Source: Alkalimonas sp.
Lineage (GTDB): Bacteria > Pseudomonadota > Gammaproteobacteria > Enterobacterales > Alteromonadaceae
Direction: 5' to 3'
NCBI GenBank assembly: GCA_022565655.1
Contig: JAIUMG010000052.1
Coordinates: forward strand, 1-13,610
Length of the DNA: 13,610 nt
The notes beneath the pieces are model-generated. The model was given only the letters and a program-made list of their open reading frames with translations. It was not told the origin of the DNA and searched no databases. Shown piece after piece: positions 1-13,610 of the stretch (the first letter of the stretch is position 1; each line of letters starts with the position of its first letter). The translations under genes and the position numbers were made by a program.

Positions 1-714
1 CCGCATGCCTGGCGTAAAATTGTCAAACGACGCTTGCCATTTTTTTGGGCCTTACCGGCCGATCTGCAGTTGAAGCTGAAAAAGCATATCCAGGTTTTTC
101 TGCATGAAAAAAACTTTATCGGCTGTGCTGGTCTCGTCATCACCGATGAAATCCGGGTCACCATTGCGGCGCAGGCTTGTTTATTATTGCTCAATCGGCC
201 CGCCGATTACTACCCTGGCCTGCAATCCATTCTGGTGTATCCGGCCGCTTTTATCGTGCCACAGCGTCAGCCAGATGGCGCCGGGGTGGTGACGGATCAG
301 GCTGGTGTCTTGTTAGGGGAATCCTGGGGGCAGGGCAAGGTGATTTTGTCCTGGCAGGATTCATGGCAAGGGGCCGCGCACCCAACCGATGGCCATAATG
401 TGGTGCTGCATGAATTTGCCCATCAACTGGATCAGCAAACAGGCTCGGCCAATGGTGCTCCGGTTCTAGGCTCGGATGGTGACCTTAAGCACTGGAGCGA
501 TGTATTTCAGCGGGCTTTTAATCAATTGCAACAGCGCCTTGATCGTGGCGAAGCGACCTTCATTGTTCCTTATGCCGCCACCAATCCGGCAGAGTTTTTT
601 GCCGTTGTAACCGAAGTGTTTTTTGAACAGCCTCGGCAGCTGCAGCAACAACAGCCTGCTCTATACCAGCAATTAAGTCAGTTTTATCAGCTAAACCCGC
701 TGAGTTGGCAGTAA
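1..714 (+). CDS. mtfA: MtfA-like zinc peptidase (peptidase M90 / Mlc titration factor A family), 5'-truncated by the window edge
   Basis: Frame 1 is open from nt 1: PHAWRKIVKRR precedes the TTG that the ORF track used at 34. Stop is TAA at 712-714. The HEFAH zinc motif (VVLHEFAHQLD) and the SWGQGKVILSW and NPAEFFAVVTEVFF blocks match my recollection of E. coli MtfA. About 25-30 N-terminal residues should lie outside the window. Confidence 0.8.
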   Translation, partial: PHAWRKIVKRRLPFFWALPADLQLKLKKHIQVFLHEKNFIGCAGLVITDEIRVTIAAQACLLLLNRPADYYPGLQSILVYPAAFIVPQRQPDGAGVVTDQAGVLLGESWGQGKVILSWQDSWQGAAHPTDGHNVVLHEFAHQLDQQTGSANGAPVLGSDGDLKHWSDVFQRAFNQLQQRLDRGEATFIVPYAATNPAEFFAVVTEVFFEQPRQLQQQQPALYQQLSQFYQLNPLSWQ

Positions 715-814
715 AGTTACAAAAAATCGTGCTGCGATACTCTAACCGAATTAGATAGCAAAACTAATTCAATGATTACGGTGTATAAACAACTTTTAGT
801 GAGAGTGTTTGCCG

Positions 815-1075
815 ATGACAAAACAGATCGTAAATCAATGCGATGTATCGCGGATTATCGAAATGGCTTGGGAGGACAGAACGCCATTTGAGGCCATTGC
901 TGCGTTATATGGCCTGGATGAGTCTGCCGTGATTCGCTTAATGCGACGAGAACTAAAAGCCGCTTCTTTTCGCTGCTGGCGCAAACGTGTGACTGGCAGG
1001 GTGACTAAGCATGCCCGTCTGCGTTCACCAGATATCACGCGGGCTTACTGTCCAACGCAATACAAGCATCGTTGA
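815..1075 (+). CDS. TIGR03643 / DUF2805 family small conserved protein
   Basis: The block IIEMAWEDRTPFEAI...LMRRELK..SFRCWRKRVTGRVTKH matches the conserved core I recall for TIGR03643. I prefer ATG 815 over the track's TTG 809, because GAGAG at 801-805 sits about 9 nt upstream of it. Stop is TGA at 1073-1075. Confidence 0.7.
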   Translation: MTKQIVNQCDVSRIIEMAWEDRTPFEAIAALYGLDESAVIRLMRRELKAASFRCWRKRVTGRVTKHARLRSPDITRAYCPTQYKHR

Positions 1076-2302
1076 TTAACTGTCTAATTTGACTTTGTTC
1101 CTACCCGCCTTTTTGGCGGCATACAACGCCTGATCGGCCCGTTTTAGCAGTAACTCTGGTTTTTCTCCTTTCTGGCGGATGGCGCAACCTAAGCTAATGG
1201 TGATTTGCACGGTTTTGGTTTTCCCTGTCTGGCCGCGTTGTTGTTTGCCTTGTTGTGTATCTTTAGGTCGCTCGGCCTGGCGCACCACCAAGGGATAGTC
1301 AGCCACTTGCTGACGCACTTTTTCCAGTTGTTCCTGCAAGCGCTTAGGATTGGCATGATGAAATACCAGGGTAAACTCTTCGCCGCCATAACGATAGGCC
1401 GTCATACCGGGCTGCTTGGCCAGAATAGCACCTAATAAACGCAACACTTGATCGCCGACATCATGGCCATAGGTATCGTTAAACTTCTTAAAGTGATCGA
1501 CATCCAGCATGGTGACGGCACTTTTTTTACCGAGCCGGTTTAAATGCCCCATCAAAGCCCGGCGCTGCGGTAACTGGGTCAGCTCATCAATATAGGCCAG
1601 CTGCAGCATTTGCATGGCCAGAGATAGTAGCAAGGTCGCACTGGCTGCAACGGTGGTCCAGCCGGACATATCTGGCAGCATAAAACCGACGTAAAACAGC
1701 AGCAAGGCCAACAAGATGGCAAACTGGGCAAGTGCCTGACTACTAAACTGGCGATAACTGATGACAGCCAGCCATAAAGAAGCAATCAGGCTGATGTAGC
1801 CCAATTGCCCCCACATCAGCGGCGAGTCCTGGCTAACAGGCAGCAATAGCCGGTGATAGTCAGGCCATGATGCCAGCCACGAAGCAAGTGGAAGCGGCAG
1901 CAGCAAGGCCGGTGCCACCAAGGTGACCACCAGTAACAGTCCGCCAGTTTTAGTGAGTAAGGGAGGCCTGGGCAGCAGCGCCAGCACCCATAAAAAAGTA
2001 ACTGAGAACAACGGCAGAAAGAAATACAGAGCGGCAACATCTGGTTCCGTCAAGGGTTGCTGCAAACCGGATTGTACGACCCAGTAGTGGCCTGCCAGAA
2101 AGGCCAACCAGTACAGCCAGTCGGTTTGGCGCATCAGCAATGCCAGCGCAGCCACAAACGCCAACACGACATAGGCGGTTACGGGAAATGGCAGCGTATG
2201 AAACAAAGCCAGCTCAGGGTAGAACCAGCGGGCCAGGGCAAGTAGCAGTATCGGAGCAAGGATAAGTAACGGCAATGAAACCTCGTTTCTAATCAGCGAC
2301 AT
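1076..2302 (-). CDS. Membrane-anchored diguanylate cyclase (polytopic N-terminal domain plus GGDEF domain with GGEEF active site)
   Basis: RYGGEEF is encoded at 1373-1387 on the minus strand, with DVDHFKKFNDTYGHDVGD upstream and LYAAKKAGRNKV near the C-terminus. The N-terminal ~230 aa are very hydrophobic, with multiple predicted TM helices. Start moved to ATG 2300-2302 (MSLIRNEV...). The track's TTG at 2398 would place the coding region inside the ccdA-operon terminator hairpin. Confidence 0.85.
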   Translation of the reverse strand: MSLIRNEVSLPLLILAPILLLALARWFYPELALFHTLPFPVTAYVVLAFVAALALLMRQTDWLYWLAFLAGHYWVVQSGLQQPLTEPDVAALYFFLPLFSVTFLWVLALLPRPPLLTKTGGLLLVVTLVAPALLLPLPLASWLASWPDYHRLLLPVSQDSPLMWGQLGYISLIASLWLAVISYRQFSSQALAQFAILLALLLFYVGFMLPDMSGWTTVAASATLLLSLAMQMLQLAYIDELTQLPQRRALMGHLNRLGKKSAVTMLDVDHFKKFNDTYGHDVGDQVLRLLGAILAKQPGMTAYRYGGEEFTLVFHHANPKRLQEQLEKVRQQVADYPLVVRQAERPKDTQQGKQQRGQTGKTKTVQITISLGCAIRQKGEKPELLLKRADQALYAAKKAGRNKVKLDS

Positions 2303-2325
2303 CCTTGCGCAGCTTAAGCGTTTGC

Positions 2326-2354
2326 AGTGTAGCAAGGAAATGCAGCTGGATGAA
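2326..2354 (-). promoter_or_regulatory. Candidate sigma-70 promoter for the diguanylate cyclase gene
   Basis: Read on the minus strand: TTCATC (plus 2349-2354), a 17-nt spacer, then TACACT (plus 2326-2331). This lies about 25 nt upstream of ATG 2302. Hand-matched only, and the -35 is weak. Confidence 0.3.
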
Positions 2355-2383
2355 TAGGTTTTAATGCGCGTAGTGGCGTTGTT

Positions 2384-2419
2384 GAAAAAAGCCGGCAAAA
2401 AAGGATGCTATGCCGGCTT
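2384..2419 (-). terminator. Rho-independent terminator ending the thioredoxin-ccdA operon
   Basis: A 9-bp GC-rich stem pairs AAGCCGGCA (2389-2397) with TGCCGGCTT (2411-2419) around a 13-nt loop. On the minus-strand transcript the hairpin runs into UUUUUUC. It begins 8 nt after the ccdA stop (2427-2429). Confidence 0.55.
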
Positions 2420-2426
2420 GAAGGAT

Positions 2427-3128
2427 TTAAATCAGCGTGACCCAGTCGGGCAGGTACTCAATGGCCCAGGCCTCCATGACTTTATCGAAGCCGGTGAAGA
2501 TCATCAGTGCGATTAGCAATAATGCATAACCAAGCAGCAGGCGACCCACTTTGCCCGAGGTGCGCAGTGTATTGAGTTTAGTGCCGGCGGCGTAACCAAT
2601 CCCCACCAGGGGCAAGGCGGTGCCTAAGCCAAAGGCCAGCATTACGGTAAACGACATCAGCATATTCTGGCCGGTGGATGCCAGTGCAATGGCAGCGCCG
2701 AGCGTAGGGCCTACACAAGGCAGCCACACCAGCCCTAGCGAACCACCAATGACAAACTGAAAGGCCGGGCTATCTGAGGACTCAGTGACCTGGCCGCCAG
2801 CAGGCACCCGGCTGGTGAGCCGAGATAACAGCATGGTGAATTGCTGATTTAACCAGCCCACCACTAACACTAACCCCATCAGCAGCATAAATACCGCGGC
2901 TACGCTGCGCATGATATCTGGCGATAAGCCAGCGCTTAGCAGCAGGTAGGTCAGCAATGAACCACCCAGCGCAAAGGTGAGGGCTAAGCCACCGGCCAAA
3001 AACCAGACACCGGTTTTTGAGGCCCGCATCGCAGATGCTGTGACCGCCGGGATCATAGGAAGTACACAGGGCGATAGCAGGCTAAGCACACCGGCAATCA
3101 AGGCCAATGGAATGGCTGTAAATTCCAT
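2427..3128 (-). CDS. ccdA: CcdA/DsbD-family transmembrane thiol:disulfide electron transporter (cytochrome c biogenesis protein CcdA family)
   Basis: A polytopic membrane protein with the two hallmark Cys motifs of the family: LSPCVLPMIP near the N-terminus and WLPCVGPTLG mid-protein. ATG is at 3126-3128, only 5 nt after the upstream thioredoxin stop. Confidence 0.8.
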   Translation of the reverse strand: MEFTAIPLALIAGVLSLLSPCVLPMIPAVTASAMRASKTGVWFLAGGLALTFALGGSLLTYLLLSAGLSPDIMRSVAAVFMLLMGLVLVVGWLNQQFTMLLSRLTSRVPAGGQVTESSDSPAFQFVIGGSLGLVWLPCVGPTLGAAIALASTGQNMLMSFTVMLAFGLGTALPLVGIGYAAGTKLNTLRTSGKVGRLLLGYALLLIALMIFTGFDKVMEAWAIEYLPDWVTLI

Positions 3129-3133
3129 GGCAG

Positions 3134-3565
3134 TTACTCAGCTGCCGGGTCGTGTTTTTTCAGCTCGGCAAAGATCGTTCTCTGGCGAGTCTGAGCCACA
3201 CTAAACCACAGCTGCTCTTCACCACGATACAGCGCTAAGGTCGATTGACGCGGGGCTTTAAAGTAGGTGACCCAGTCTTTTTGCTGATCATAATCAACTT
3301 CCAACACTAATAAATCACTGTCCGGGTACTGAGCAAAATAATCATTTAACACATTCTGCTGGCGTCGGCAGGTTGGGCACCAGGTGGCATACACATCGAT
3401 GAGCACCAGTTTATTGTCAGCTTGAGCTTGACGAAATACGTCTTCACTGAAGGGTTGTTTGTGCTTATCTAAATGCTCGGTGGATGCATTGGCTGGTGTC
3501 AAAAAGAAAAATGCGGCGGCGGCTACAGCAATAACTGCAAGAGATACAGTGGTGGTAATTTTCAT
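3134..3565 (-). CDS. Periplasmic thioredoxin-fold protein (TlpA/thioredoxin-like, WCPTC active site)
   Basis: N-terminal signal peptide or anchor (MKITTTVSLAVIAVAAAAFFFLTPANA), then VLIDVYATWCPTCRRQ, a CxxC thioredoxin motif. GAGG Shine-Dalgarno lies 5 nt upstream of ATG 3565. It forms an operon with ccdA. Confidence 0.8.
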   Translation of the reverse strand: MKITTTVSLAVIAVAAAAFFFLTPANASTEHLDKHKQPFSEDVFRQAQADNKLVLIDVYATWCPTCRRQQNVLNDYFAQYPDSDLLVLEVDYDQQKDWVTYFKAPRQSTLALYRGEEQLWFSVAQTRQRTIFAELKKHDPAAE

Positions 3566-3665
3566 AAAAACCTCGTTGATTGAATGTTCTCAAACAGTCT
3601 ACGAGGAAGGGGCTGCAGCTACATCAGCCAATGCATCGGCTGAGTCAACCAAAACACCGAAATGG

Positions 3666-4595
3666 CTATGCCTGGCTGGCGCGATACTCGCCAGGTGAGA
3701 GTTGTTCACGTTGTTTGAAAAAACGGATAAAGGCGGTGGCGGATTGGTATCCCACCTGCTCGGCAATCAACTCCAGACTCAGTTCAGAATGGATCAGTAG
3801 ATAGCGGGCGCGTTGCAGTCGAATTTCATCCAGCAGGGCTTTGGCTGTCATGTCCATGACTTTGTGGCAACGCTCGGCAAAGGCACTTTTGGACAAAAAT
3901 GCCATCGCCGCCATGCTCTCTACCGTCCAGTCGGCAGCGGGGTCATCCATAATCGCCAGTACTACTTTACGTAAGGTGCTGTCTTTTAACGCCGCCAGTA
4001 AGCCATGGTTGACGCCATCATCACTCAGAACTTGCCGCAGCAAATGCAGCACCACCACATCGCTGAGCCGGCTAATCGCAGCCTGATAACCAGGTTGGCG
4101 CTCTGTGGCTTCCTGCTGAATGATTTGAATGAGTGGCTGCAAGCGGCTGGACTGCCGCTCTGCGGGTAAGTGAATATAGTCTGGCATTACGTGAAACAAA
4201 TTCGCCGTCAGCGGTGACTCGATCTGAATATCGTAACAAACCAAGCCTCGCTCTATATGTTCCGGCACGCAAAACGTCGGGAAGTCCACCTCTCGGGTTT
4301 GCTCTGACACCGGCTGATCACTTAGCCAATGGCGGAAACTGTGGCTAAAAAAAATAGCATCGCCGGGCTGCAGCTGCACCTGCTCATGCAAACGGCCGGG
4401 GATTGCCATCCAAACCGTGCCACGGGTCACAACATGCAAGGCCGCCTTGCTGGATTTACTGGTGAGTAAATTCCAATCATCACAGAAGCCAGACTCGAAA
4501 TGCAATTCAGAGCCGAAAGCCAGCTGAGCCAACAGTTGATCTAAGGCAGAGGTTGTTTCAGTCGATTGAGCAGGTGTTTTGGTCATTGTTGCCAT
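3666..4595 (-). CDS. AraC-family transcriptional regulator with N-terminal cupin-type sensor domain
   Basis: The C-terminal double HTH signature is LSKSAFAERCHKVMDMTAKALLDEIRLQRARYLL...ELIAEQVGYQSATAFIRFFKQREQLSPGEYR. The N-terminal half is cupin-like (LHVVTRGTVWMAIPG...LQPGDAIFFSHSFRHWL). It is transcribed divergently from the 4675-9258 operon. Confidence 0.85.
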   Translation of the reverse strand: MATMTKTPAQSTETTSALDQLLAQLAFGSELHFESGFCDDWNLLTSKSSKAALHVVTRGTVWMAIPGRLHEQVQLQPGDAIFFSHSFRHWLSDQPVSEQTREVDFPTFCVPEHIERGLVCYDIQIESPLTANLFHVMPDYIHLPAERQSSRLQPLIQIIQQEATERQPGYQAAISRLSDVVVLHLLRQVLSDDGVNHGLLAALKDSTLRKVVLAIMDDPAADWTVESMAAMAFLSKSAFAERCHKVMDMTAKALLDEIRLQRARYLLIHSELSLELIAEQVGYQSATAFIRFFKQREQLSPGEYRASQA

Positions 4596-4674
4596 TGGGT
4601 TAAGTGGCTAAGGTATTTAAGCATACCAGTCTAAGTTGTTTCTTAGGCTTTGCAACCCTAAATAAGGATATACG
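4596..4674. promoter_or_regulatory. Divergent control region between the AraC gene and the operon; candidate AraC operator repeats
   Basis: This 79-bp gap must hold both promoters. It contains GGTAT-N6-ATACC (4612-4627) and CTAAG-N6-CTTAG (4631-4646). There is also a direct CTAAG copy at 4608-4612, 23 nt upstream of the one at 4631. AAGGA Shine-Dalgarno is at 4664-4668. I could not assign convincing -35/-10 hexamers. Confidence 0.35.
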
Positions 4675-5124
4675 ATGTCACATATTTTACTTGCCCGGCC
4701 CCATCCATTTATTGTCAGTGAGATGGCGCCTTTTCTGCAGGATCAAGGCCATTCGTTCAGTAAGCTCACTCAGTTGGATGCTTTAAACGAGCAGTTGTCG
4801 CAAGCAAAAGCGGCCGTAATTTCATTGGCGTTATCGTCGCCACTCGCCCACACAGCCGAAGAGGTGGTTACTGCGATTCGGCAGAAAAATGCGCGCTTGC
4901 CTTTGGTTTTTGCCAGTTTATTGCCATTGGATCGGGTGCAGAAAAATATTCTGCAACTGTTGGAACAACATCATCCTGCCGCATCGGTGGTGTCAGCGAC
5001 TTCGACGCTAGGGAGTGGCCGCCCAGGCCAGCCAGATACCGCTTTGTATTTTTCGAAAGATGACCTGAATAACCCTGATAGTCGGCGACAATTTGCCCAG
5101 TTACTCAAGCAACATGCATTGTAA
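4675..5124 (+). CDS. Hypothetical 149-aa protein; possible degenerate receiver-like (flavodoxin-like alpha/beta) domain
   Basis: Good Shine-Dalgarno (AAGGA, 6-nt spacing). I recognise no family motif. The alternating hydrophobic strand and amphipathic helix pattern (HILLAR / AAVISLAL / LPLVFASL / ASVVSAT) lines up with CheY-like topology. The acidic pocket and the phospho-Asp are absent. Confidence 0.6.
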   Translation: MSHILLARPHPFIVSEMAPFLQDQGHSFSKLTQLDALNEQLSQAKAAVISLALSSPLAHTAEEVVTAIRQKNARLPLVFASLLPLDRVQKNILQLLEQHHPAASVVSATSTLGSGRPGQPDTALYFSKDDLNNPDSRRQFAQLLKQHAL

Positions 5125-5150
5125 TCATCCAAAAATTTAGGAGCACAGTC

Positions 5151-6074
5151 ATGCTTAAGTGGTTTCAGCAGTTTCAACCGAGTCAGCACGGTACAACGAA
5201 TGCTGAACAACTCAGCAAAGATCTGCTGTCCAGCTTGATGGTGATGGCGTGGTTTGTGGAAGCCAAAGATCCCTATACCGGCGGCCATCTGTGGCGAGTG
5301 TCGCGTTATGCCAATGTTTTGGCCCGAGCCGGTAAATTACCGGAGGGCGATGTCGCCCGCATCACCTTAGGTGGCTTCTTACATGACTTAGGCAAGGTGG
5401 CCATTCCTGATGCGGTCTTGAATAAAACCGGCAAGCTATCGGATAGCGAATACCGGGTGATTCAAACACACCCGCAAGCCGGGGGGCGGATGTTGGCCGG
5501 GCATCCACTGGGCCATTTGGTGGCTGCAGCAGTTGAGCTGCATCATGAACGACCCGATGGAAACGGTTATCCGCATGGGCTGGCGACCAGTATGATCCCG
5601 GTTGATGCGGCGATTGTTGGTATTTGTGATGCATTTGATGCCATGACCAGCCAGCGGCCCTACCGCAAACCGATGCCTTTAGACAAAGTGGTATCGATTT
5701 TCCGTCAGGAAATGGGCAGTCAATTCAATCAATTCTGGGGTGAGCTATTCCTGACTTTAGTTGAGCAAGGAAAGGTGGACAACATTATCGGACATAGTGA
5801 TGAAGGTATTCCCTTGCACACTTGTCCACATTGCGGACCGACGGTGGTGCAACACAGTGATGACCAAATAGGGGATCATCTGCACTGCCGAGTCTGTCAT
5901 AGTGAAATGGAATTATGCACTGAGCATGATAAGGTGACGGTGAAGCCTACAGGTAAAAAAGGCAATGCAGCCGAGATGCAACCTAAAGCCGACAACCTAT
6001 TGATTAAAAAGTTAATTGAGCAGTCCATTGCCCATATTCCTCTGCAACAACTCATGAAGCTGCCTGGCGTATGA
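5151..6074 (+). CDS. HD-GYP domain c-di-GMP phosphodiesterase with C-terminal CxxC...CxxC zinc-ribbon extension
   Basis: FLHDLGKVAIPDAVLNK (HD at 5382-5387) and HHERPDGNGYPHGL (GYP at 5565-5573) are the canonical HD-GYP motifs. CPHC (5823-5834) and CRVC (5886-5897) form a zinc-ribbon-like pair. AGGAG Shine-Dalgarno lies 7 nt upstream of ATG 5151. Confidence 0.85.
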   Translation: MLKWFQQFQPSQHGTTNAEQLSKDLLSSLMVMAWFVEAKDPYTGGHLWRVSRYANVLARAGKLPEGDVARITLGGFLHDLGKVAIPDAVLNKTGKLSDSEYRVIQTHPQAGGRMLAGHPLGHLVAAAVELHHERPDGNGYPHGLATSMIPVDAAIVGICDAFDAMTSQRPYRKPMPLDKVVSIFRQEMGSQFNQFWGELFLTLVEQGKVDNIIGHSDEGIPLHTCPHCGPTVVQHSDDQIGDHLHCRVCHSEMELCTEHDKVTVKPTGKKGNAAEMQPKADNLLIKKLIEQSIAHIPLQQLMKLPGV

Positions 6075-6313
6075 GCTTGTTACTAAGGCAGTTCTTTCAT
6101 GCTGATGTCATGAAAACTGCGCTTTATGTTGCTATCGTGGTTAGCAGTATCCTGAACCTCATCAACCAGTTCGATGCTCTGTTTGGTGAGGCATGCTGGC
6201 GCTGGGGAATGGCAGGCCTCAATTATTTAGTGCCCTATTGTGTTGCCAGTTACAGCGGTGCTTCGCAGCGAGTAAAACAACGATTATCGACGTTAAAGGA
6301 TTCAGAAACATGA
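6071..6313 (+). CDS. NrtS-like small integral membrane protein (annotated family: nitrate/nitrite transporter NrtS)
   Basis: An 80-aa protein with two hydrophobic segments. The pattern TALYVAIVVSSILNLINQFDALFG....NYLVPYCVASYS resembles the NrtS family consensus as I remember it (..vVG.iLnlINqgDal... VPYcVs). The start ATG overlaps the HD-GYP stop as ATGA (6071-6074). Confidence 0.55.
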   Translation: MSLLLRQFFHADVMKTALYVAIVVSSILNLINQFDALFGEACWRWGMAGLNYLVPYCVASYSGASQRVKQRLSTLKDSET

Positions 6314-6801
6314 ATGTGATTGCTCAAAACCTACAGCAACTTGGTTATTTGCGCAGTATTTTGCAACTAGTGAGTCTGGAGCATTATCAACACTGTTTAG
6401 CCTGGCCTGGTGAGCCCTCTATCGGCAAGCACAGCCGGCATGTGCTCGATCATTATCAACAATTGTGGCTGGCCTCTGAAAGCAAACAACTGGATTATCG
6501 CTTACGGTTACGGGATCTGGGGGCTCAGACAGAGCCCTCTATTGCCTTGCAGTGGATTGACCGCTTAGAAACCTGGCTACACTGCCTTGAGCTATCTGAG
6601 CTTGATAGGCAGCTGCAATATCAGTTTGATGGCGGTGCTACCTACACCAGCCTGCAACGCGAATTAGACTTTGTCTGCAGTCATACCGTGCACCACTTAG
6701 CGTTGATCAATGGAATTTTGCTGCAGCTCGATTACCCCATGCAGCCGCACCTTGGCCTGCACAGTTCTACGTTGGAGTATTTGCAACAATGTGCACCCTG
6801 A
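6310..6801 (+). CDS. DinB/YfiT-superfamily (four-helix-bundle, His-triad) protein
   Basis: GKHSRHVLDHY near the N-terminus and CSHTVHHLALING near the C-terminus look like the DinB_2-type metal-binding histidines, and the ~163-aa size is typical. Start set to ATG 6310 rather than the track's 6193. ATG 6310 overlaps the NrtS stop as ATGA (6310-6313) and has AAGGA 9 nt upstream. Confidence 0.55.
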   Translation: MNVIAQNLQQLGYLRSILQLVSLEHYQHCLAWPGEPSIGKHSRHVLDHYQQLWLASESKQLDYRLRLRDLGAQTEPSIALQWIDRLETWLHCLELSELDRQLQYQFDGGATYTSLQRELDFVCSHTVHHLALINGILLQLDYPMQPHLGLHSSTLEYLQQCAP

Positions 6802-8393
6802 GCTGGCAGTATCACGACCGTCAGCTCAAGCTGGTTTTTAATCGTGATGAACAAAGAGCACGCGCTGCGGCTCAGCCTCCTGAGTTGTACCAGCAAGATG
6901 GTGTGCAGGCCATGATGCCACTGGACCCAGCAGGTGGCGGCAGTTGGTTGGCCGCGAATGAAGATGGTTTTGTGGTGTGCTTACTGAATGATTATACGTC
7001 CAGTTTCCAACCTGCAGAAGATGAACGACAAAGTCGTGGGCTTTTGGTAAGACAATTAGCCCACTGTCGTAGTTGGTTGGAACTGGATTCATGGTTGCAA
7101 CCCGAGCTTATGCAGCGCTATGCCCCCTTTAAACTGTTGATTTTCTATCAGCAGCAAGAACCTTTGTTGTGGCACTGGAATGGCAACCACTTGCAACAAA
7201 GCCTGGCGGTTCGCTCACCGGTCTCTAGCTCTAGTGCGATGCCCCGTTTGATCCCAAGGCTGCGCGAACGCCGGATCCAGCGGTTGATGTCGGCCCCGAT
7301 TGATGCATCCACGCATCTGGCTCTGCATCGGCAGGCAAAGCCTTTGCATCGCTTTTTTGGCATCGCCATGCAGCGAGAAAAAGTACAGACCGTCAGCATC
7401 ACGATGGTCAACTGGCAGAGCAACCATATCGAGATGACGTATTGGGGTGGGCACCCGGCAAGGCACCAAGCCACTACAGATCGCCGTTTGACCTTGCCAC
7501 TGGTTTCAACACCTGAGCAAGGTGCTGATGGTTTTGCTACTCGGCTGGATGTGCGCGATTTAATGCAGCGCTTTAGCCCGGCAGTTAGCCGGCGCTTAAC
7601 AGGGTGGCAGTGGTCGTTGCTGCGCTGGTTATTGGCAGAAAAACCGTTAAATCAGGGGCTGCAATGGTTGAATCAACAACCGGCTGAACGCTTTTGCGAC
7701 ATCGCTTTGCAACGGCTCGGCTTGCAGCCTCATGTCGTCGCCTGTCGCTGGCCAGCATCAGCCACCCGGCCCGTTTTTGTCTGCAATCATCCCACCGGTG
7801 GCATTGATGGCTTAGTGCTGATCAGTATATTGAAAAAGCGCTATCCAGATCTAAAAGTCATTGCCAACGAGGTGCTGTCGGAAGTGCAGCAGTTGGCAGA
7901 TTGCATTGTGCCGGTATCGGTGTTTGGTAATGTTCGGGCATCCTTACCACGGGTGCAAGCTGCCTTTGCCAGTGATGCACCTTTGCTGATTTTCCCGGCG
8001 GGGCGAACGGCAAGAGCAGAGCCAAAGCTGGGGCTGGATGATGGACCTTGGGCGAAATTAGCTGTGACTCTGGCGCGCCGCGAGCAACGCAGCATGACGG
8101 TTTTGCACCTGCAAAGCCGAAATTCATGGGGGTTTTACCTGCTGGCACGATTACGACGTTGGTTGGGGATCAGTACCAACCTGGAGATGCTGCTGTTGGT
8201 GCGAGAAATGCTGAAACCGGCGATGAAACAGCCCAGGCTTTATGTTGATGTACCCATGCACCCGTTGGAGTTAACGGCGTTAGCCGATACGGATCGGCAA
8301 CGTATCAGCTGGTTAAAACGCCGATGCTACCAATTACCCCGAGTGTATCAGGAGGAACCCAATGCGACCGTTAAACCCAGTTGCAGCCGCTGA
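6789..8393 (+). CDS. Fusion protein: N-terminal NRDE-family (TANGO2-like, Ntn-hydrolase-fold) domain plus C-terminal lysophospholipid/OlsA-like acyltransferase domain
   Basis: One uninterrupted 534-codon frame. Residues 1 to ~238 start with MCT and carry FNRDE (NRDE at 6840-6851), the family signature. Residues ~251-534 carry VFVCNHPTGGIDGL (His at 7788-7790) and LLIFPAGRTAR (7992-8009), which are PlsC-superfamily catalytic blocks. No Shine-Dalgarno or obvious start is visible at the domain junction (7500-7565). It overlaps the upstream gene by 13 nt. Confidence 0.75.
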   Translation: MCTLSWQYHDRQLKLVFNRDEQRARAAAQPPELYQQDGVQAMMPLDPAGGGSWLAANEDGFVVCLLNDYTSSFQPAEDERQSRGLLVRQLAHCRSWLELDSWLQPELMQRYAPFKLLIFYQQQEPLLWHWNGNHLQQSLAVRSPVSSSSAMPRLIPRLRERRIQRLMSAPIDASTHLALHRQAKPLHRFFGIAMQREKVQTVSITMVNWQSNHIEMTYWGGHPARHQATTDRRLTLPLVSTPEQGADGFATRLDVRDLMQRFSPAVSRRLTGWQWSLLRWLLAEKPLNQGLQWLNQQPAERFCDIALQRLGLQPHVVACRWPASATRPVFVCNHPTGGIDGLVLISILKKRYPDLKVIANEVLSEVQQLADCIVPVSVFGNVRASLPRVQAAFASDAPLLIFPAGRTARAEPKLGLDDGPWAKLAVTLARREQRSMTVLHLQSRNSWGFYLLARLRRWLGISTNLEMLLLVREMLKPAMKQPRLYVDVPMHPLELTALADTDRQRISWLKRRCYQLPRVYQEEPNATVKPSCSR

Positions 8394-9258
8394 GCCAACT
8401 GATTGCATTCAGCAAGAGCTAGCCGCCTTAACGCCCATCGCCGAAGTGCGTGGCTTGCAAGTTTTTCGTGCCCAGGCCAGCCAGATCCCATCCACCTTGC
8501 TGGAGATTGGCCGCATACGTGAGCAAGTGTTTCGCGATGCTGGGGCCGGGCGCAACCTGGAGCGCGACCTGGATGCGCTGGATTATGGCGATGCAGCCTA
8601 CCATCAATTGATTGTATGGGATCCTCAGCGCCGCGAGTTGGTGGCTTTGTATCGTTATCAACTCGGCTGGCTGGCTGCACAACACGGTGTATCGATTTTA
8701 CGAACCAGCCAACTGTTTGATTACAGCCAGGCTTTTCAGCAGCAGGTGTTGCCTTACGGCATCGAGCTTGGGCGCTCCGTAGTGAACCAGCAGGCAAAAG
8801 GCCGAGCATTGGGTTTTTTTGCGCTCTGGGCCGGGCTTGGAGCTTTAGCCCGCCTGTATCCGCAGCTGCGCTATTTTTTCGGCAATGTCTCGTTGTATCA
8901 GGGCCTGGGGCAAGCCGGTATCGACTGTATGGTGCAGTTCTGCCAGCAGCTTTATCTGCCCCCTGAACCCATGATGCTGGCAAAAGCAGGGTTAAGTTTT
9001 GAGCCCAGACGGCAGCTGGAGACCGCATCGCTTATTGACGAAACGTCAGCTGTACGAATCAAGCACCTGCAACAGTACCTGAAATCGCTGGGTTGCCGTT
9101 TGCCGCCTATTTTGCAGTCCTACCTGGGAGTAGGCAATGCCATCTGGTTTGACGATGCGGCGCTGGATAACGACTTTGGTCAAGCTTATGAGCTCAGCAT
9201 CATGGTGCCATTGACTGCTGTCAGTGGTGCCATTCGGCAGCGGTTTATTGATTTATAA
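8362..9258 (+). CDS. OlsB-like GNAT N-acyltransferase (PF13444-type, lyso-aminolipid / N-acyl amino acid synthase family)
   Basis: LLEIGRIREQVFRDAGAG....ERDLDALDYGDAAYHQLIVWDPQRRELVALYRY matches the N-terminal signature I recall for OlsB/hemolysin-like GNATs. A perfect AGGAGG (8350-8355) lies 6 nt before ATG 8362, inside the end of the upstream gene (32-nt overlap). It is adjacent to the cognate-type acyltransferase. Confidence 0.7.
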   Translation: MRPLNPVAAAEPTDCIQQELAALTPIAEVRGLQVFRAQASQIPSTLLEIGRIREQVFRDAGAGRNLERDLDALDYGDAAYHQLIVWDPQRRELVALYRYQLGWLAAQHGVSILRTSQLFDYSQAFQQQVLPYGIELGRSVVNQQAKGRALGFFALWAGLGALARLYPQLRYFFGNVSLYQGLGQAGIDCMVQFCQQLYLPPEPMMLAKAGLSFEPRRQLETASLIDETSAVRIKHLQQYLKSLGCRLPPILQSYLGVGNAIWFDDAALDNDFGQAYELSIMVPLTAVSGAIRQRFIDL

Positions 9259-10038: not shown

Positions 10039-10115
10039 TGGTGGCCCCTCCCAGACTCGAACTGGGGACCTAACGATTATGAGTCGTGTGCTCTAACCAA
10101 CTGAGCTAAGGGGCC
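10039..10115 (-). tRNA. ileX: tRNA with CAU anticodon, most likely tRNA-Ile2 (lysidine-modified, ileX-type) rather than elongator tRNA-Met
   Basis: The reverse complement GGCCCCTTAGCTCAGTTGGTTAGAGCACACGACTCATAATCGTTAGGTCCCCAGTTCGAGTCTGGGAGGGGCCACCA folds into a clean 77-nt cloverleaf: 7-bp acceptor, GCTC/GAGC D stem, CTCATAA loop, CCCAG/CTGGG T stem, encoded CCA. The acceptor GGCCCCU and the C29-G41 pair match E. coli ileX as I recall it, not metT. Confidence 0.9.
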
Positions 10116-11957: not shown

Positions 11958-13610
11958 TTACTCGTCGAGGAAGCTTTTCAGTACCTCGGAGCGGGAAGGG
12001 TGACGCAGCTTGCGCAGCGCCTTGGCTTCAATTTGCCGGATCCGTTCACGGGTCACGTCAAACTGTTTGCCCACTTCTTCCAGTGTGTGGTCGGTATTCA
12101 TATCAATACCGAATCGCATCCGCAGCACTTTGGCTTCACGTGCCGTCAGGCCAGCCAATACTTCGTTGGTGGCGTTTTTCAGGCTTTCCATGGTGGCAGA
12201 ATCCAGCGGTGATTCACCGCCGACATCTTCGATAAAATCGCCCAGATGCGAATCTTCATCATCGCCAATGGGGGTTTCCATCGAAATCGGCTCTTTGGCG
12301 ATCTTCAGCACCTTACGGATCTTGTCTTCAGGCATCAACATGCGTTCGGACAATTCTTCCGGGGTTGGCTCGCGGCCCATCTCCTGCAACATCTGCCGTG
12401 AAATACGGTTCAGCTTGTTGATGGTCTCGATCATGTGCACCGGGATACGAATGGTGCGAGCCTGGTCGGCGATGGAGCGGGTAATGGCTTGTCGGATCCA
12501 CCAGGTCGCATAAGTAGAGAACTTATAGCCACGGCGATATTCGAATTTATCCACTGCTTTCATCAAACCGATGTTACCTTCCTGAATTAAATCCAGGAAT
12601 TGCAAGCCACGGTTGGTGTATTTTTTCGCGATAGAAATTACCAGGCGCAAGTTGGCTTCGACCATTTCTTTCTTGGCTCGACGCGCTTTGGCTTCACCAA
12701 TCGACATACGACGGTTGATGTCTTTGATTTTGGCAATACTCAGGCCGGTTTCTTCTTCAACCTTTTTCAGTTTCTCGATGCAGCGGTAGAGATCATCCTG
12801 GAATTCCGCTAATTTTGCAGCATGTGGCTTTGAACCAGCGACTTCGGCATCGATCCAGGCTGCAGAGGTTTCATTGCCGGTGAAGGCTTTGACAAAAGCT
12901 TTTTTCGGCATTTTAGCGTGTTCAACGCTGTGCTTCATGATCAGCCGCTCTTGCACCCGAACCCGATCCATCATTTCACGCATGTTTTTGACCAAGCGAT
13001 CAAATTGCTTGGGCACCAGGCGGAAACAACGGAATACTTCACTTAACTTCAGAATTTCTTCTTTGGTGGTCGCGTGTTCACGGCCATTGTTGACAATGGA
13101 ATGGCGGGTGACTTCGTATTGCTGTTGTAACTCACCAAACTTAACGCGAGCAACTTCCGGATCTGGCCCGGTATCACCATCATCGGCATCGTCGTCGTCA
13201 TCATCATCGTCATCGCTATCATCATCGGATGCACTTTCAGGCACTTCAGAGCCAATGTTGGTGGCAATGACCGGTGCTTCATCCAGTTCATTCGGATCGA
13301 CAAAGGCAGTGACAATGTCACTCAAACGCATTTGGTCTGCTTCGTATTTATCCCATAAATCAAGTAAATAGGTTATGGCTTCAGGGTACTCAGCGACAGA
13401 TGTCTGCACCTGATTAATGCCATCTTCAATACGCTTGGCAATTTCAATTTCACCATCACGGGTCAGTAGTTCTACTGTGCCCATTTCCCGCATGTACATC
13501 CGAACCGGATCCGTAGTGCGACCCAGCTCTTTGTCCACACTAACCAAGGCCTGAGCCGCTTCTTCAGCGGCATCGTCATCGGCGGCGGCATCAGCCATGA
13601 TCAAGTCATC
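11958..13610 (-). CDS. rpoD: RNA polymerase primary sigma factor RpoD (sigma-70), 5'-truncated by the window edge
   Basis: Long stretches match E. coli RpoD as I recall it: [104 protein letters not shown], and [32 protein letters not shown]. The frame stays open to nt 13610, so roughly 60-70 N-terminal residues lie outside the window. Stop is TAA at 11958-11960. Confidence 0.97.

Follow-up and report, generated by a model that had tools for sequence, protein, structure and literature searches.

The window analysed here, the whole 13,610-nucleotide (nt) stretch of Alkalimonas sp. contig JAIUMG010000052.1 (assembly GCA_022565655.1), carries a six-gene operon (g1 to g6; Table 1) that we read as a variant of the bacterial aminolipid operons. 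The last two genes encode a predicted two-step pair for acyloxyacyl amino-acid lipids, and the DinB-family protein g4, together with the TANGO2/NRDE domain (hereafter NRDE) fused to the acyltransferase in g5, would form an acyl-handling unit attached to that pair. We give this overall account a probability of about 0.5. The type of pathway is known; the novelty lies in the TANGO2 domain joined to the acyltransferase, in the DinB partner and in the occurrence in alkaline lakes.

The operon is chromosomal and comes from an Alkalimonas metagenome-assembled genome (MAG). The first-pass annotation, made from the sequence alone, had delimited six same-strand genes at 4675-9258 and a divergent AraC/cupin regulator. 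The listing of open reading frames (ORFs) and the junction sequences confirmed the coordinates of the genes and of all junctions, the Cupin_6/AraC gene was confirmed on the minus strand, and every domain that had been named was recovered by Pfam or NCBIfam profile search. The count of six is consistent with the NRDE domain and the acyltransferase forming one ORF.

The DinB, NRDE-acyltransferase and N-acyltransferase cassette

The gene neighbourhood was surveyed in one scan of species-representative genomes, comprising 80 loci (loci are given below as L numbers). The fusion of NRDE to the acyltransferase (NRDE::AT) was found in about 40 of the 80 species-level loci. Its gammaproteobacterial hosts were Alkalimonas, Arsukibacterium, Alishewanella, Rheinheimera, Idiomarina, Aliidiomarina, Bacterioplanes, Saccharospirillum, Salinispirillum and Natronospirillum, and the fusion was also present in Balneolales/Cyclonatronaceae, Spirochaetaceae and one Chitinophagales MAG. 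Genus names and sample codes, to which no statistic is attached, suggest that these hosts come mostly from soda-lake or alkaline samples. A GlsB-like N-acyltransferase (NAT) gene follows the acyltransferase (AT) gene in about 30 fusion loci, usually with a 4-nt overlap, and does so in most loci lacking NRDE as well. By a home-built hidden Markov model (HMM) of the g4-type family, 30 of the 42 top-ranked loci, in three phyla (L001-L042, comprising 41 NRDE::AT fusions and the DinB::AT locus L039), have a DinB gene immediately before the AT gene; the 38 loci whose AT-NAT pair lacks NRDE have none. The unit DinB, NRDE::AT, NAT is conserved in about 30 species of Gammaproteobacteria, Spirochaetaceae and Balneolales. 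Since the g4/g5/g6 order and the overlapping g5/g6 junction (4-41 nt) recur in isolates and MAGs of three phyla, the layout of the operon is not a product of chance.

Four architectures were distinguished. The first, DinB followed by NRDE::AT and NAT, is that of the window and 29 further loci. In the second, seen in Natronospirillum operosum G-116 (L039), a 486-amino-acid (aa) DinB_2::Acyltransf_2 fusion without NRDE precedes NAT. The third, in the metagenomic locus L094, consists of a 600-aa OlsF-like AT::NAT protein whose gene overlaps by 7 nt with a 415-aa DinB::NRDE ORF; the first 150 residues of this ORF are g4-like (37% identity, E 6e-16) and lead in frame into NRDE at GTG-TGC-ACG. This ORF (P0170) has no in-frame stop and is present with the same sequence on four contigs. 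The GTG that precedes the cysteine codon may serve as an internal start, or self-cleavage of the type known from N-terminal-nucleophile (Ntn) enzymes could free the cysteine; it is possible that, owing to such an internal GTG start, the DinB::NRDE ORF is an artefact of gene calling. In the fourth architecture DinB precedes a stand-alone NRDE gene with no lipid genes, as in five of the six nearest stand-alone NRDE genes sampled (L085-L090). Given that such pairs also occur without lipid genes, DinB followed by NRDE is a module in its own right, one that, to judge from these gene arrangements, has repeatedly been joined to OlsF-type aminolipid enzymes. The natural fusions support a predicted physical association for DinB, NRDE and AT only. 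In a neighbour-joining tree of the acyltransferase domains, which has no support values and is a rough guide, the gammaproteobacterial, Balneolales and Chitinophagales fusions formed one clade and the Spirochaetaceae fusions were interleaved with genes lacking NRDE, a pattern that suggests horizontal spread together with some losses.

The C-terminal domain of g5 matched Acyltransf_2 (PF19576, E 2.3e-27, residues 263-516), and its score against PF01553, the OlsA/PlsC family, was 20.3 bits, under the 23-bit gathering score. The acyltransferase motifs N333-H334...D340-G341 (NHPTGGxDG, with HX5D spacing) and F402-P403-x-G405 are invariant or nearly so, and Foldseek matched the fold of the domain to squash glycerol-3-phosphate acyltransferase (1k30/1iuq). 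The g6 product matched PF13444 (E 1.8e-11, 45 bits against a cut-off of 22.4) and reached the OlsB equivalog models only at E 6e-5 and 3e-3. The two genes had been proposed as an OlsB/OlsA-type pair. The two-step acyloxyacyl-aminolipid pair and the PF13444 assignment stand, whereas the OlsA type gives way, in view of PF19576 and the subthreshold PF01553 score, to a predicted pair of the GlsA/GlsB-OlsF type. The order of AT and then NAT mirrors the domain order of OlsF. In relatives of this pair, the N-acyltransferase makes the lyso-aminolipid and the O-acyltransferase adds the second chain (PMC11631085). A split or frameshifted OlsF was considered and rejected because the overlapping two-ORF layout, AT then NAT, is kept in isolate genomes of several genera. 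Beside or after the AT-NAT pair, two loci (L049, 3466-4398; L018, 14362-15213) encode a hydrophobic protein of 283-310 aa with weak similarity to NIPA/EamA, a candidate lipid or head-group transporter.

Within the operon, g1 and g2 are separated by 26 nt (5125-5150), the g2/g3 and g3/g4 junctions are ATGA start-stop overlaps (6071-6074 and 6310-6313), and the g4/g5 and g5/g6 overlaps extend over 13 nt (6789-6801) and 32 nt (8362-8393), respectively. Shine-Dalgarno-like sequences precede g1 (AAGGA), g2 (AGGAG), g4 (AAGGA) and g6 (a strong AGGAGG, 7 nt 5' of the ATG). Inspection of the junctions revealed none upstream of g3, the translation of which depends on its ATGA junction with g2. Pattern scans inside the operon counted 5 promoter-like sites against 6.1 expected from shuffled sequences and 10 terminator-like sites against 7.7 expected; with both at shuffle level, a single transcript is neither supported nor contradicted. 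The Rfam scan returned a tRNA only, with no riboswitch or leader ahead of the operon, and it is the gene spacing that points to co-transcription. A mobile-island origin was found to be unsupported, the GC content being even across the window and the flanking genes syntenic among Alkalimonas species.

Table 1. Features of the 13,610-nt window
Feature	Position	Strand	Assignment	Remarks
M90 metallopeptidase	34-714		MtfA-like	ordinary flank
DUF2805 protein	809-1075			ordinary flank
GGDEF protein	1076-2398	-	diguanylate cyclase
Thioredoxin-CcdA pair	2427-3565	-	thioredoxin-fold protein and CcdA/DsbD-type membrane thiol-reductant transporter	downstream of regulator
Regulator	3666-4595	-	Cupin_6 and HTH_18, AraC family, RclR-like	divergent; 79 nt from g1
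Control region	4596-4674		divergent, with CTAAG repeats	79 nt
g1	4675-5124	+	stand-alone pseudo-receiver	accessory
g2	5151-6074	+	HD-GYP phosphodiesterase family, without receiver domain, C-terminal CxxC...CxxC	accessory
g3	6071-6313	+	NrtS-like, 80 aa	accessory; two hydrophobic stretches read as transmembrane helices
g4	6310-6801	+	DinB_2 family, His-rich putative metal site	core
g5, whole ORF	6789-8393	+	NRDE and acyltransferase in one frame	534 aa
g5, N-terminal domain	6789-7508	+	TANGO2/NRDE, Cys-Ntn-hydrolase fold
g5, C-terminal domain	7575-8336	+	putative lyso-aminolipid O-acyltransferase, OlsF-N/GlsA type
g6	8362-9258	+	putative amino-acid N-acyltransferase, OlsB superfamily, GlsB/OlsF-C type
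tRNA-Met (CAT)	10039-10115	-		between a DUF502 gene and a 369-aa ORF without Pfam family
RpoD	11958-13604		with acidic non-essential region	probably runs off window end; ordinary flank

The NRDE domain and the DinB protein

The N-terminal domain of g5, a protein labelled in databases only as 'NRDE family protein', matched PF05742 over residues 1-198 (E 6.5e-12, 46.6 bits against a cut-off of 22.6). In an end-to-end alignment of 20 fusions, M1-C2-T3 and N18-R19-D20-E21 were invariant or nearly so, and the stand-alone NRDE relatives that were sampled all start with MCT and carry (N/S)RDE. The domain is always N-terminal. With the AlphaFold2 model of g5 (pLDDT 87.1, pTM 0.88), Foldseek placed human TANGO2 (9bwa, E 7e-8, TM 0.61 on the target) and CV2077 (3gvz) at the top, followed by bile-salt hydrolases, penicillin V acylase, NAAA and acid ceramidase. 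The family profile matched TANGO2 8sv7 (E 0.0045) with the NRDE motifs aligned; a single-sequence search of the PDB with g5 gave no match. In a library of 1.84 billion representative proteins, 3,631 were related to the domain at E <= 0.001, and the best 150 of them comprised 17 full-length fusions (520-605 aa), 1 shorter fusion and 1 DinB::NRDE protein, the remainder being stand-alone proteins of ~240-290 aa, save one of 181 aa. Three Natronospirillum loci (L037, L039, L040) form a natural loss series for the domain.

Human TANGO2 binds C16/C18 acyl-CoA via its NRDE motif, and loss of TANGO2 raises lysophospholipids (PMC11867700). From its crystal structure, a Cys-Ntn hydrolase was suggested, with a cavity of the size of a fatty acid, and a comparison was drawn with isopenicillin-N acyltransferase, which uses acyl-CoA (PMC13044924); catalysis by the TANGO2 family is so far undemonstrated (PMC13044924, PMC11867700). 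In four Spirochaetaceae cassette loci (L027-L030, about 5600-13750 in each), CoaBC lies directly upstream on the opposite strand and a DUF89/ARMT1-like phosphatase directly downstream on the same strand, and genes for a Pyr_redox_2 disulfide reductase and a DUF547 protein are also present. These neighbours from coenzyme A metabolism, restricted to one lineage, are worth recording since TANGO2 binds CoA/acyl-CoA.

The match of g4 to DinB_2 (PF12867) was marginal (E 4.7e-6, 27.5 bits against a cut-off of 24.8), and several g4 orthologues fall below Pfam detection. Two motifs, HSRHVLDHY (aa 41-49) and SHTVHH (aa 124-129), are kept in its relatives as H-x-R-H-x-x-D-H-Y and S-H-x-x-H-H; these His-rich motifs would form a putative metal site, and the protein is probably metal-binding. 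A word-indexed search with g4 yielded only 11 close relatives and did not add to the fusions. Enzymes with the DinB fold are, as a rule, thiol S-transferases. The stand-alone DinB-NRDE pairs of the metagenomic contigs L085-L089 recur with DoxX, an ORF of ~100 aa that has no annotation and an ATP-grasp protein of 740-820 aa of the tubulin-tyrosine-ligase (TTL) type. A PqqD-like domain, associated with recognition of ribosomally synthesized and post-translationally modified peptides (RiPPs), was also present in the single ATP-grasp protein that was scanned, and the arrangement is reminiscent of a peptide-modification cluster. Also near these pairs are genes for GGDEF-EAL and DUF547 proteins.

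Accessory genes, regulator and redox neighbours

The g1 product had no Pfam match at E 0.01 and none to Response_reg, and its family is small (34 clusters). The top Foldseek matches of its AlphaFold2 model (pLDDT 91.8) were the response-regulator receivers PA1611, PmrA and DivK, with TM about 0.65-0.73. An invariant ARPHP (aa 7-11, after strand 1) and S50 (after strand 3) replace the DD and D of receivers; since they stand where the acidic pocket and the phospho-Asp would be, g1 is read as a pseudo-receiver. The g2 product matched HD_5 (PF13487, E 1.7e-30) with a complete motif set, HD at aa 78-79 and HHERPDGNGYP at aa 131-141, and is a predicted cyclic di-GMP (c-di-GMP) phosphodiesterase. HD-GYP enzymes normally have N-terminal sensor domains. 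The NosR-family HD-GYP model covers only the catalytic half of g2, and the protein ends in a zinc-ribbon-like pair, CPHC (225-228) and CRVC (246-249; window 5823-5897), a motif unusual at the C-terminus of HD-GYP enzymes. The g3 product matched NF038050, the model for NrtS, a small nitrate/nitrite transporter (E 1.2e-8, 34.7 bits against a cut-off of 25). The PAS-GGDEF-EAL proteins of L018 and L016 (603-628 aa) have a homologous hydrophobic module at their N-terminus (tblastn, 44-45% identity), fusions that suggest a sensor or anchor role for the NrtS-like module there.

The insert was compared across 16 Alteromonadales-type loci, the window and L001-L015. The g1-g2-g3 set was complete in 7 (window, L001, L003, L005, L006, L007, L012), partial in 2 (g1 and g3 only in L004, g2 only in L008) and absent from 7 (L002, L009, L010, L011, L013, L014, L015), the last being Alkalimonas collagenimarina, the closest relative (g5 73% identity). 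Counted singly, g2 was present in 8 of the 16 (window, L001, L003, L005-L008, L012). By this comparison g1-g3 are a lineage-specific accessory insert between the AraC promoter region and DinB. HD-GYP, NrtS, DinB and NRDE had all been described as welded to the lipid pair; owing to the variability of g1-g3 among related loci, the word fits DinB, NRDE::AT and NAT only.

Enzymes of c-di-GMP turnover nevertheless adjoin related cassettes in other forms. In Salinispirillum marinum (L018), the NAT gene is followed at 27 nt by the gene of a 603-aa NrtS-like::GGDEF-EAL protein; in Saccharospirillum (L016), the cassette and the gene of a 628-aa NrtS-like::PAS-GGDEF-EAL protein converge; in two Spirochaetaceae (L049, L054), the stop of a receiver-HD-GYP (REC-HD-GYP) gene overlaps the start of an acyltransferase gene lacking NRDE; and in L046/L047, GGDEF-EAL genes lie 1.3 kb downstream. 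That enzymes of differing classes occupy the same position speaks for a functional relation. In the flanks examined, some 60 of the 80 loci had no c-di-GMP gene. The proposed local wiring to c-di-GMP therefore holds in so far as such enzymes abut the cassette in three or four other forms, and does not hold as a general feature; gene content indicates a recurrent but optional link, with a cassette that works without such enzymes. The window itself also encodes, 2.3 kb from the operon, a hydrophobic and presumably multi-pass membrane GGDEF diguanylate cyclase (1076-2398, minus strand), whose orthologue remains close to the cassette, at a few kb or less, in L002, L003, L011, L014 and L015.

The regulator matched Cupin_6 (E 3e-32) and HTH_18 (E 4e-20), and the AraC gene is kept divergent from the cassette in the window and L001-L015. 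His42 and His75 were reportedly singled out by Parker et al. in 2013 as conserved residues of RclR. The columns of RclR Cys89, His42 and His75 were invariant in eight aligned sequences (C120, H54 and H89 in the window), and identity to E. coli RclR was 27%. RclR is activated through a Cys21-Cys89 disulfide (PMC7464077). Given these RclR-like residues and the recurring redox and metal-stress neighbours described below, a thiol-based stress sensor of the RclR type seems favoured over a classical ligand-binding AraC protein. Two observations tell against it: the best NCBIfam match, RclR itself, was reached at E 9e-30 and 104 bits against a 400-bit cut-off, and the conserved cysteine of the regulator (C38) is 3 residues off the Cys21 column. 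A small-molecule-induced AraC regulator had been envisaged; the divergent AraC gene is borne out, and the classical small-molecule type seems the less likely one in view of the invariant Cys89/His42/His75 columns. In the control region, CTAAG occurs as a direct repeat (4608 and 4631, 23 nt apart) and once more in inverted form, as CTTAG at 4642, with TTGCAA after it, and the AGTCTAAG...TTGCAA pattern is common to insert-bearing loci and to Alishewanella loci without g1-g3. These repeats may act as the operator. A pattern scan of 4596-4674 found no match to the sigma-70 consensus.

Beyond the regulator by 100 nt, the 2427-3565 region matched Thioredoxin (E 2e-11) and DsbD_2/DsbD_TM; this thioredoxin-CcdA pair adjoins AraC in the window, L002, L003, L004, L009-L011 and L013-L015 and is candidate context only for the operon system. 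The stand-alone DinB-NRDE pairs have as neighbours DoxX, Pyr_redox_2, GST/glutaredoxin, CMD/AhpD-like proteins and an extracytoplasmic function (ECF) sigma factor with a zf-HC2 anti-sigma factor; DsbA and MerC are among the neighbours in L094, and a disulfide reductase is among those of the Spirochaetaceae loci. The L094 neighbourhood (1-6000) encodes VTT/DedA and MlaA proteins in addition to DsbA and MerC. In L007 a bufferin-type cluster (4477-6863; BufA1-like precursor, MbnB/DUF692, HvfC/DUF2063 and DoxX) lies between thioredoxin-CcdA and AraC, and MbnB-, HvfC- or DoxX-type ORFs lie beside AraC in L001, L005, L008 and L012. No such cluster is present in the window; one of this type lies near a g1 homologue in L081-L082.

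Proposed mechanism, rival explanations and significance

In the proposed mechanism, g6 would N-acylate an amino acid with a 3-hydroxy fatty acyl group, yielding a lyso-aminolipid, and the C-terminal domain of g5 would esterify the 3-hydroxyl with a second fatty acid. Removal of Met1 would expose Cys2 of the NRDE domain, which would take a fatty acyl group from acyl-CoA as a thioester, like isopenicillin-N acyltransferase, and deliver it to the active site of the acyltransferase next to it; DinB would aid the thiol chemistry of this step. That NRDE handles the acyl group is suggested by its invariably N-terminal position, as an Ntn enzyme starting with Met-Cys requires, by the binding of acyl-CoA to TANGO2 and by the comparison made for the crystal structure. 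For the hand-off by way of a Cys2 thioester, our confidence is tentative and falls somewhat short of even. Expression would be driven from the 79-nt divergent region by the cysteine-based regulator; its likeness to RclR points to induction by oxidative, chlorine or copper-type stress and not by a sugar-like ligand. The g1-g2-g3 insert would add membrane-linked c-di-GMP degradation on the same transcript. DinB-NRDE would be the older two-gene module, recruited to and fused with aminolipid enzymes in alkaline-lake bacteria.

Several observations weigh against this account. The acyl donor of OlsF- and GlsA-type enzymes is usually considered to be acyl-acyl carrier protein (acyl-ACP), which would make an acyl-CoA adaptor unnecessary. 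Of the Cys-Ntn catalytic set, Cys2 and Asp20 are present, and the counterparts of TANGO2 Asn157/Lys166, for the oxyanion Asn and the Arg/Lys of the set, are candidates only (SSSS at 146-149 and the invariant R159). In Natronospirillum MAGs, Cys2 and the NRDE motif are gone and the domain escapes Pfam detection: the L037 protein starts with MDALTW and has SSRD, and in L040 the domain is unrecognisable. L039 has none, so that the domain, decayed or lost, is dispensable for the acyltransferase there. The g4-type HMM found no DinB gene adjacent to the fusion in ten Balneolales loci, L036 and L041. Purified human TANGO2 had no lysophospholipid acyltransferase activity (PMC11867700). The family models, too, were reached well short of their cut-offs: g5 scored 148.3 bits against GlsA (E 2.3e-43; cut-off 260) and, over residues 262-518, 116.7 bits against the N-half of OlsF (E 1.1e-33; cut-off 620), and g6 scored 175.6 bits against GlsB (E 1.2e-51; cut-off 300) and, over residues 5-296, 155.1 bits against the C-half of OlsF (E 2.6e-45; cut-off 620). 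With all model scores far under the equivalog cut-offs, g5 and g6 are read as a distinct branch of the OlsF/GlsBA lineage.

The conserved and always N-terminal Cys2 would equally suit an amide hydrolase or transamidase that cleaves or exchanges the N-acyl-amino-acid bond, either in the lyso-aminolipid or in the finished lipid, for editing, exchange of the head group or turnover, with DinB as an accessory metalloenzyme acting on the released head group. The bile-salt hydrolases, penicillin V acylase, NAAA and acid ceramidase found by Foldseek all have lipophilic N-acyl amides as substrates, an amine N-acyltransferase activity is also described for bile-salt hydrolase (cited in PMC13044924), and the stand-alone pairs beside ATP-grasp amino-acid ligases of the TTL type with a PqqD-like domain represent an amide-bond context with no lipid genes. 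However, joining a hydrolase to the lipid-completing enzyme would set up a futile cycle unless control were tight, and TANGO2 has been shown to bind acyl-CoA, not amides (PMC11867700); we regard this explanation as unlikely. A thiol or oxidant detoxification unit would combine a DinB thiol transferase with a Cys-Ntn amidase, like the S-transferase/conjugate-amidase pairs of mycothiol and bacillithiol metabolism, and the acyltransferases would make N-acyl amino-acid conjugates or signals instead of bulk lipid. The usual S-transferase chemistry of the DinB fold would fit, and so would the recurrence of redox-themed neighbours (the RclR-like regulator, thioredoxin-CcdA, DoxX, Pyr_redox_2, DsbA, MerC and the bufferin-type cluster). 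AT-NAT, though, is the defining pair of membrane aminolipid synthesis, the second acylation leads to a two-tailed lipid, lipid-handling neighbours (MlaA, VTT/DedA) occur in L094 and L088, and none of the genes for low-molecular-weight thiol biosynthesis were seen nearby, which together make this role distinctly improbable.

Still farther from our expectation is a role of NRDE in the binding or trafficking of heme, which has been put forward for Shewanella HtpA and for TANGO2; the fusion would then be unrelated to acyl chemistry. Bacterial TANGO2 homologues have been reported to bind heme and to promote cytochrome c maturation (PMC10470608), and the CcdA-type 'cytochrome c biogenesis' protein and thioredoxin lie just past the regulator; against this, the heme role of TANGO2 is contested (PMC12782551), the binding was called nonspecific in the structure paper (PMC13044924), heme, Ccm or cytochrome genes do not accompany the cassette in other phyla, and the repeated fusions are to DinB and acyltransferases. 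We consider a heme module very improbable indeed. The remaining explanation, that of the first-pass annotation, concerns the whole operon: its six products would be one stoichiometric, co-translated machine in which c-di-GMP hydrolysis by HD-GYP is integral to lipid remodelling. The overlapping junctions throughout, the intact HD-GYP catalytic motifs and the c-di-GMP enzymes that abut related cassettes in independent forms (L018, L016, L049, L054, L046/L047) are in its favour. Yet g1-g3 are missing from or incomplete in 9 of the 16 compared loci, the nearest relative among those without them; most of the surveyed loci lack a c-di-GMP gene in the flanks examined; operons commonly contain start-stop overlaps, which are no proof of a complex; and g1 homologues elsewhere also occur without HD-GYP. 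A machine of six obligatory parts therefore appears improbable.

Compared with known systems, the pair most resembles OlsF of Serratia proteamaculans and Flavobacterium johnsoniae in having PF19576 followed by PF13444 in the same order. OlsF is a single polypeptide, whereas here there are two genes overlapping by 32 nt that are separate in all relatives, isolates included, and OlsF has neither the N-terminal NRDE domain nor the preceding DinB gene of the window. GlsB/GlsA of the Bacteroides glycine lipids, which gave the best-scoring NCBIfam models, are likewise two separate genes for N- and then O-acylation; that pathway is described without an NRDE fusion or DinB, and the cassette of the window belongs to gammaproteobacterial and soda-lake taxa. 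The NRDE domain shares PF05742, Met-Cys, the NRDE motif and an Ntn-type fold with human TANGO2 (8sv7, 9bwa), CV2077 (3gvz) and Shewanella HtpA. It differs in its low identity to human TANGO2 (~14%) and in its fusion to an acyltransferase. Its subclade (MCT...NRDE...SRG...TSS...TVSLT) is DinB-paired, a pairing unreported for TANGO2 or HtpA, and unlike it Shewanella SO0126 adjoins a metal transporter (PMC10470608). Isopenicillin-N acyltransferase, bile-salt hydrolase/penicillin V acylase, NAAA and acid ceramidase share with it the fold class, an N-terminal Cys and lipophilic acyl groups; in those enzymes the cysteine is exposed by autoproteolysis or signal processing, whereas Cys2 of g5 would need removal of Met, and identity is ~10%.

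The RclR-rclABC system of E. coli likewise has a Cupin_6 and AraC regulator divergent from its target operon, with the Cys89/His42/His75 columns kept. Its target genes are entirely different and the Cys21 counterpart is shifted in the window regulator; elsewhere, a distant g1 homologue sits between such a regulator (Cupin_6/AraC) and an RclA-like Pyr_redox_2 gene. The succession of a receiver-fold g1 and an HD-GYP g2 recalls RpfG-type REC-HD-GYP proteins, and a true REC-HD-GYP precedes AT-NAT in L049 and L054; the g1 of the window, however, is a separate gene without phospho-acceptor residues and is not always linked to HD-GYP, and g2 has its zinc-ribbon-like end. The view that NRDE and DinB stand outside the described aminolipid pathways was upheld, as neither of the reviews PMC11631085 and PMC12971839 (2026) mentions NRDE, TANGO2 or DinB. 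The word 'fusion' is absent from the TANGO2 structure paper (PMC13044924) and 'acyltransferase' from the HtpA paper (PMC10470608). Our literature search returned nothing connecting TANGO2/NRDE to DinB or to aminolipid synthesis, and nothing useful on Alkalimonas and aminolipids or on NrtS.

For aminolipid biology, the locus represents a fourth layout beside the OlsBA, OlsF and OlsH routes, with hints of redox-stress control and a recurrent, optional coupling to c-di-GMP. For the TANGO2 family the implications may be wider. In humans, TANGO2 deficiency is a metabolic disease of severe course, and there is dispute over the biochemical function of the protein, the proposals being heme trafficking, acyl-CoA binding and an unproven Cys-Ntn hydrolase. 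Fusion to a lyso-lipid O-acyltransferase is genomic evidence, independent of the human work, for a fold that acts on fatty-acyl groups at the second acylation, and the DinB-type protein is a candidate partner of the TANGO2 fold. It is conceivable, if rather unlikely, that DinB and NRDE are an ancient two-protein catalytic unit that loads or edits acyl groups via the N-terminal Cys, and that the TANGO2 family, as the recurrent natural fusions to lyso-lipid acyltransferases would then show, feeds or proofreads lyso-lipid re-acylation. If true, such a unit would explain at the enzyme level the build-up of lysophospholipids in TANGO2 deficiency, and would identify the missing partner activity as DinB-like thiol or metal chemistry. 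The three-gene system is small and should be expressible in E. coli, which would make the TANGO2 question directly testable.

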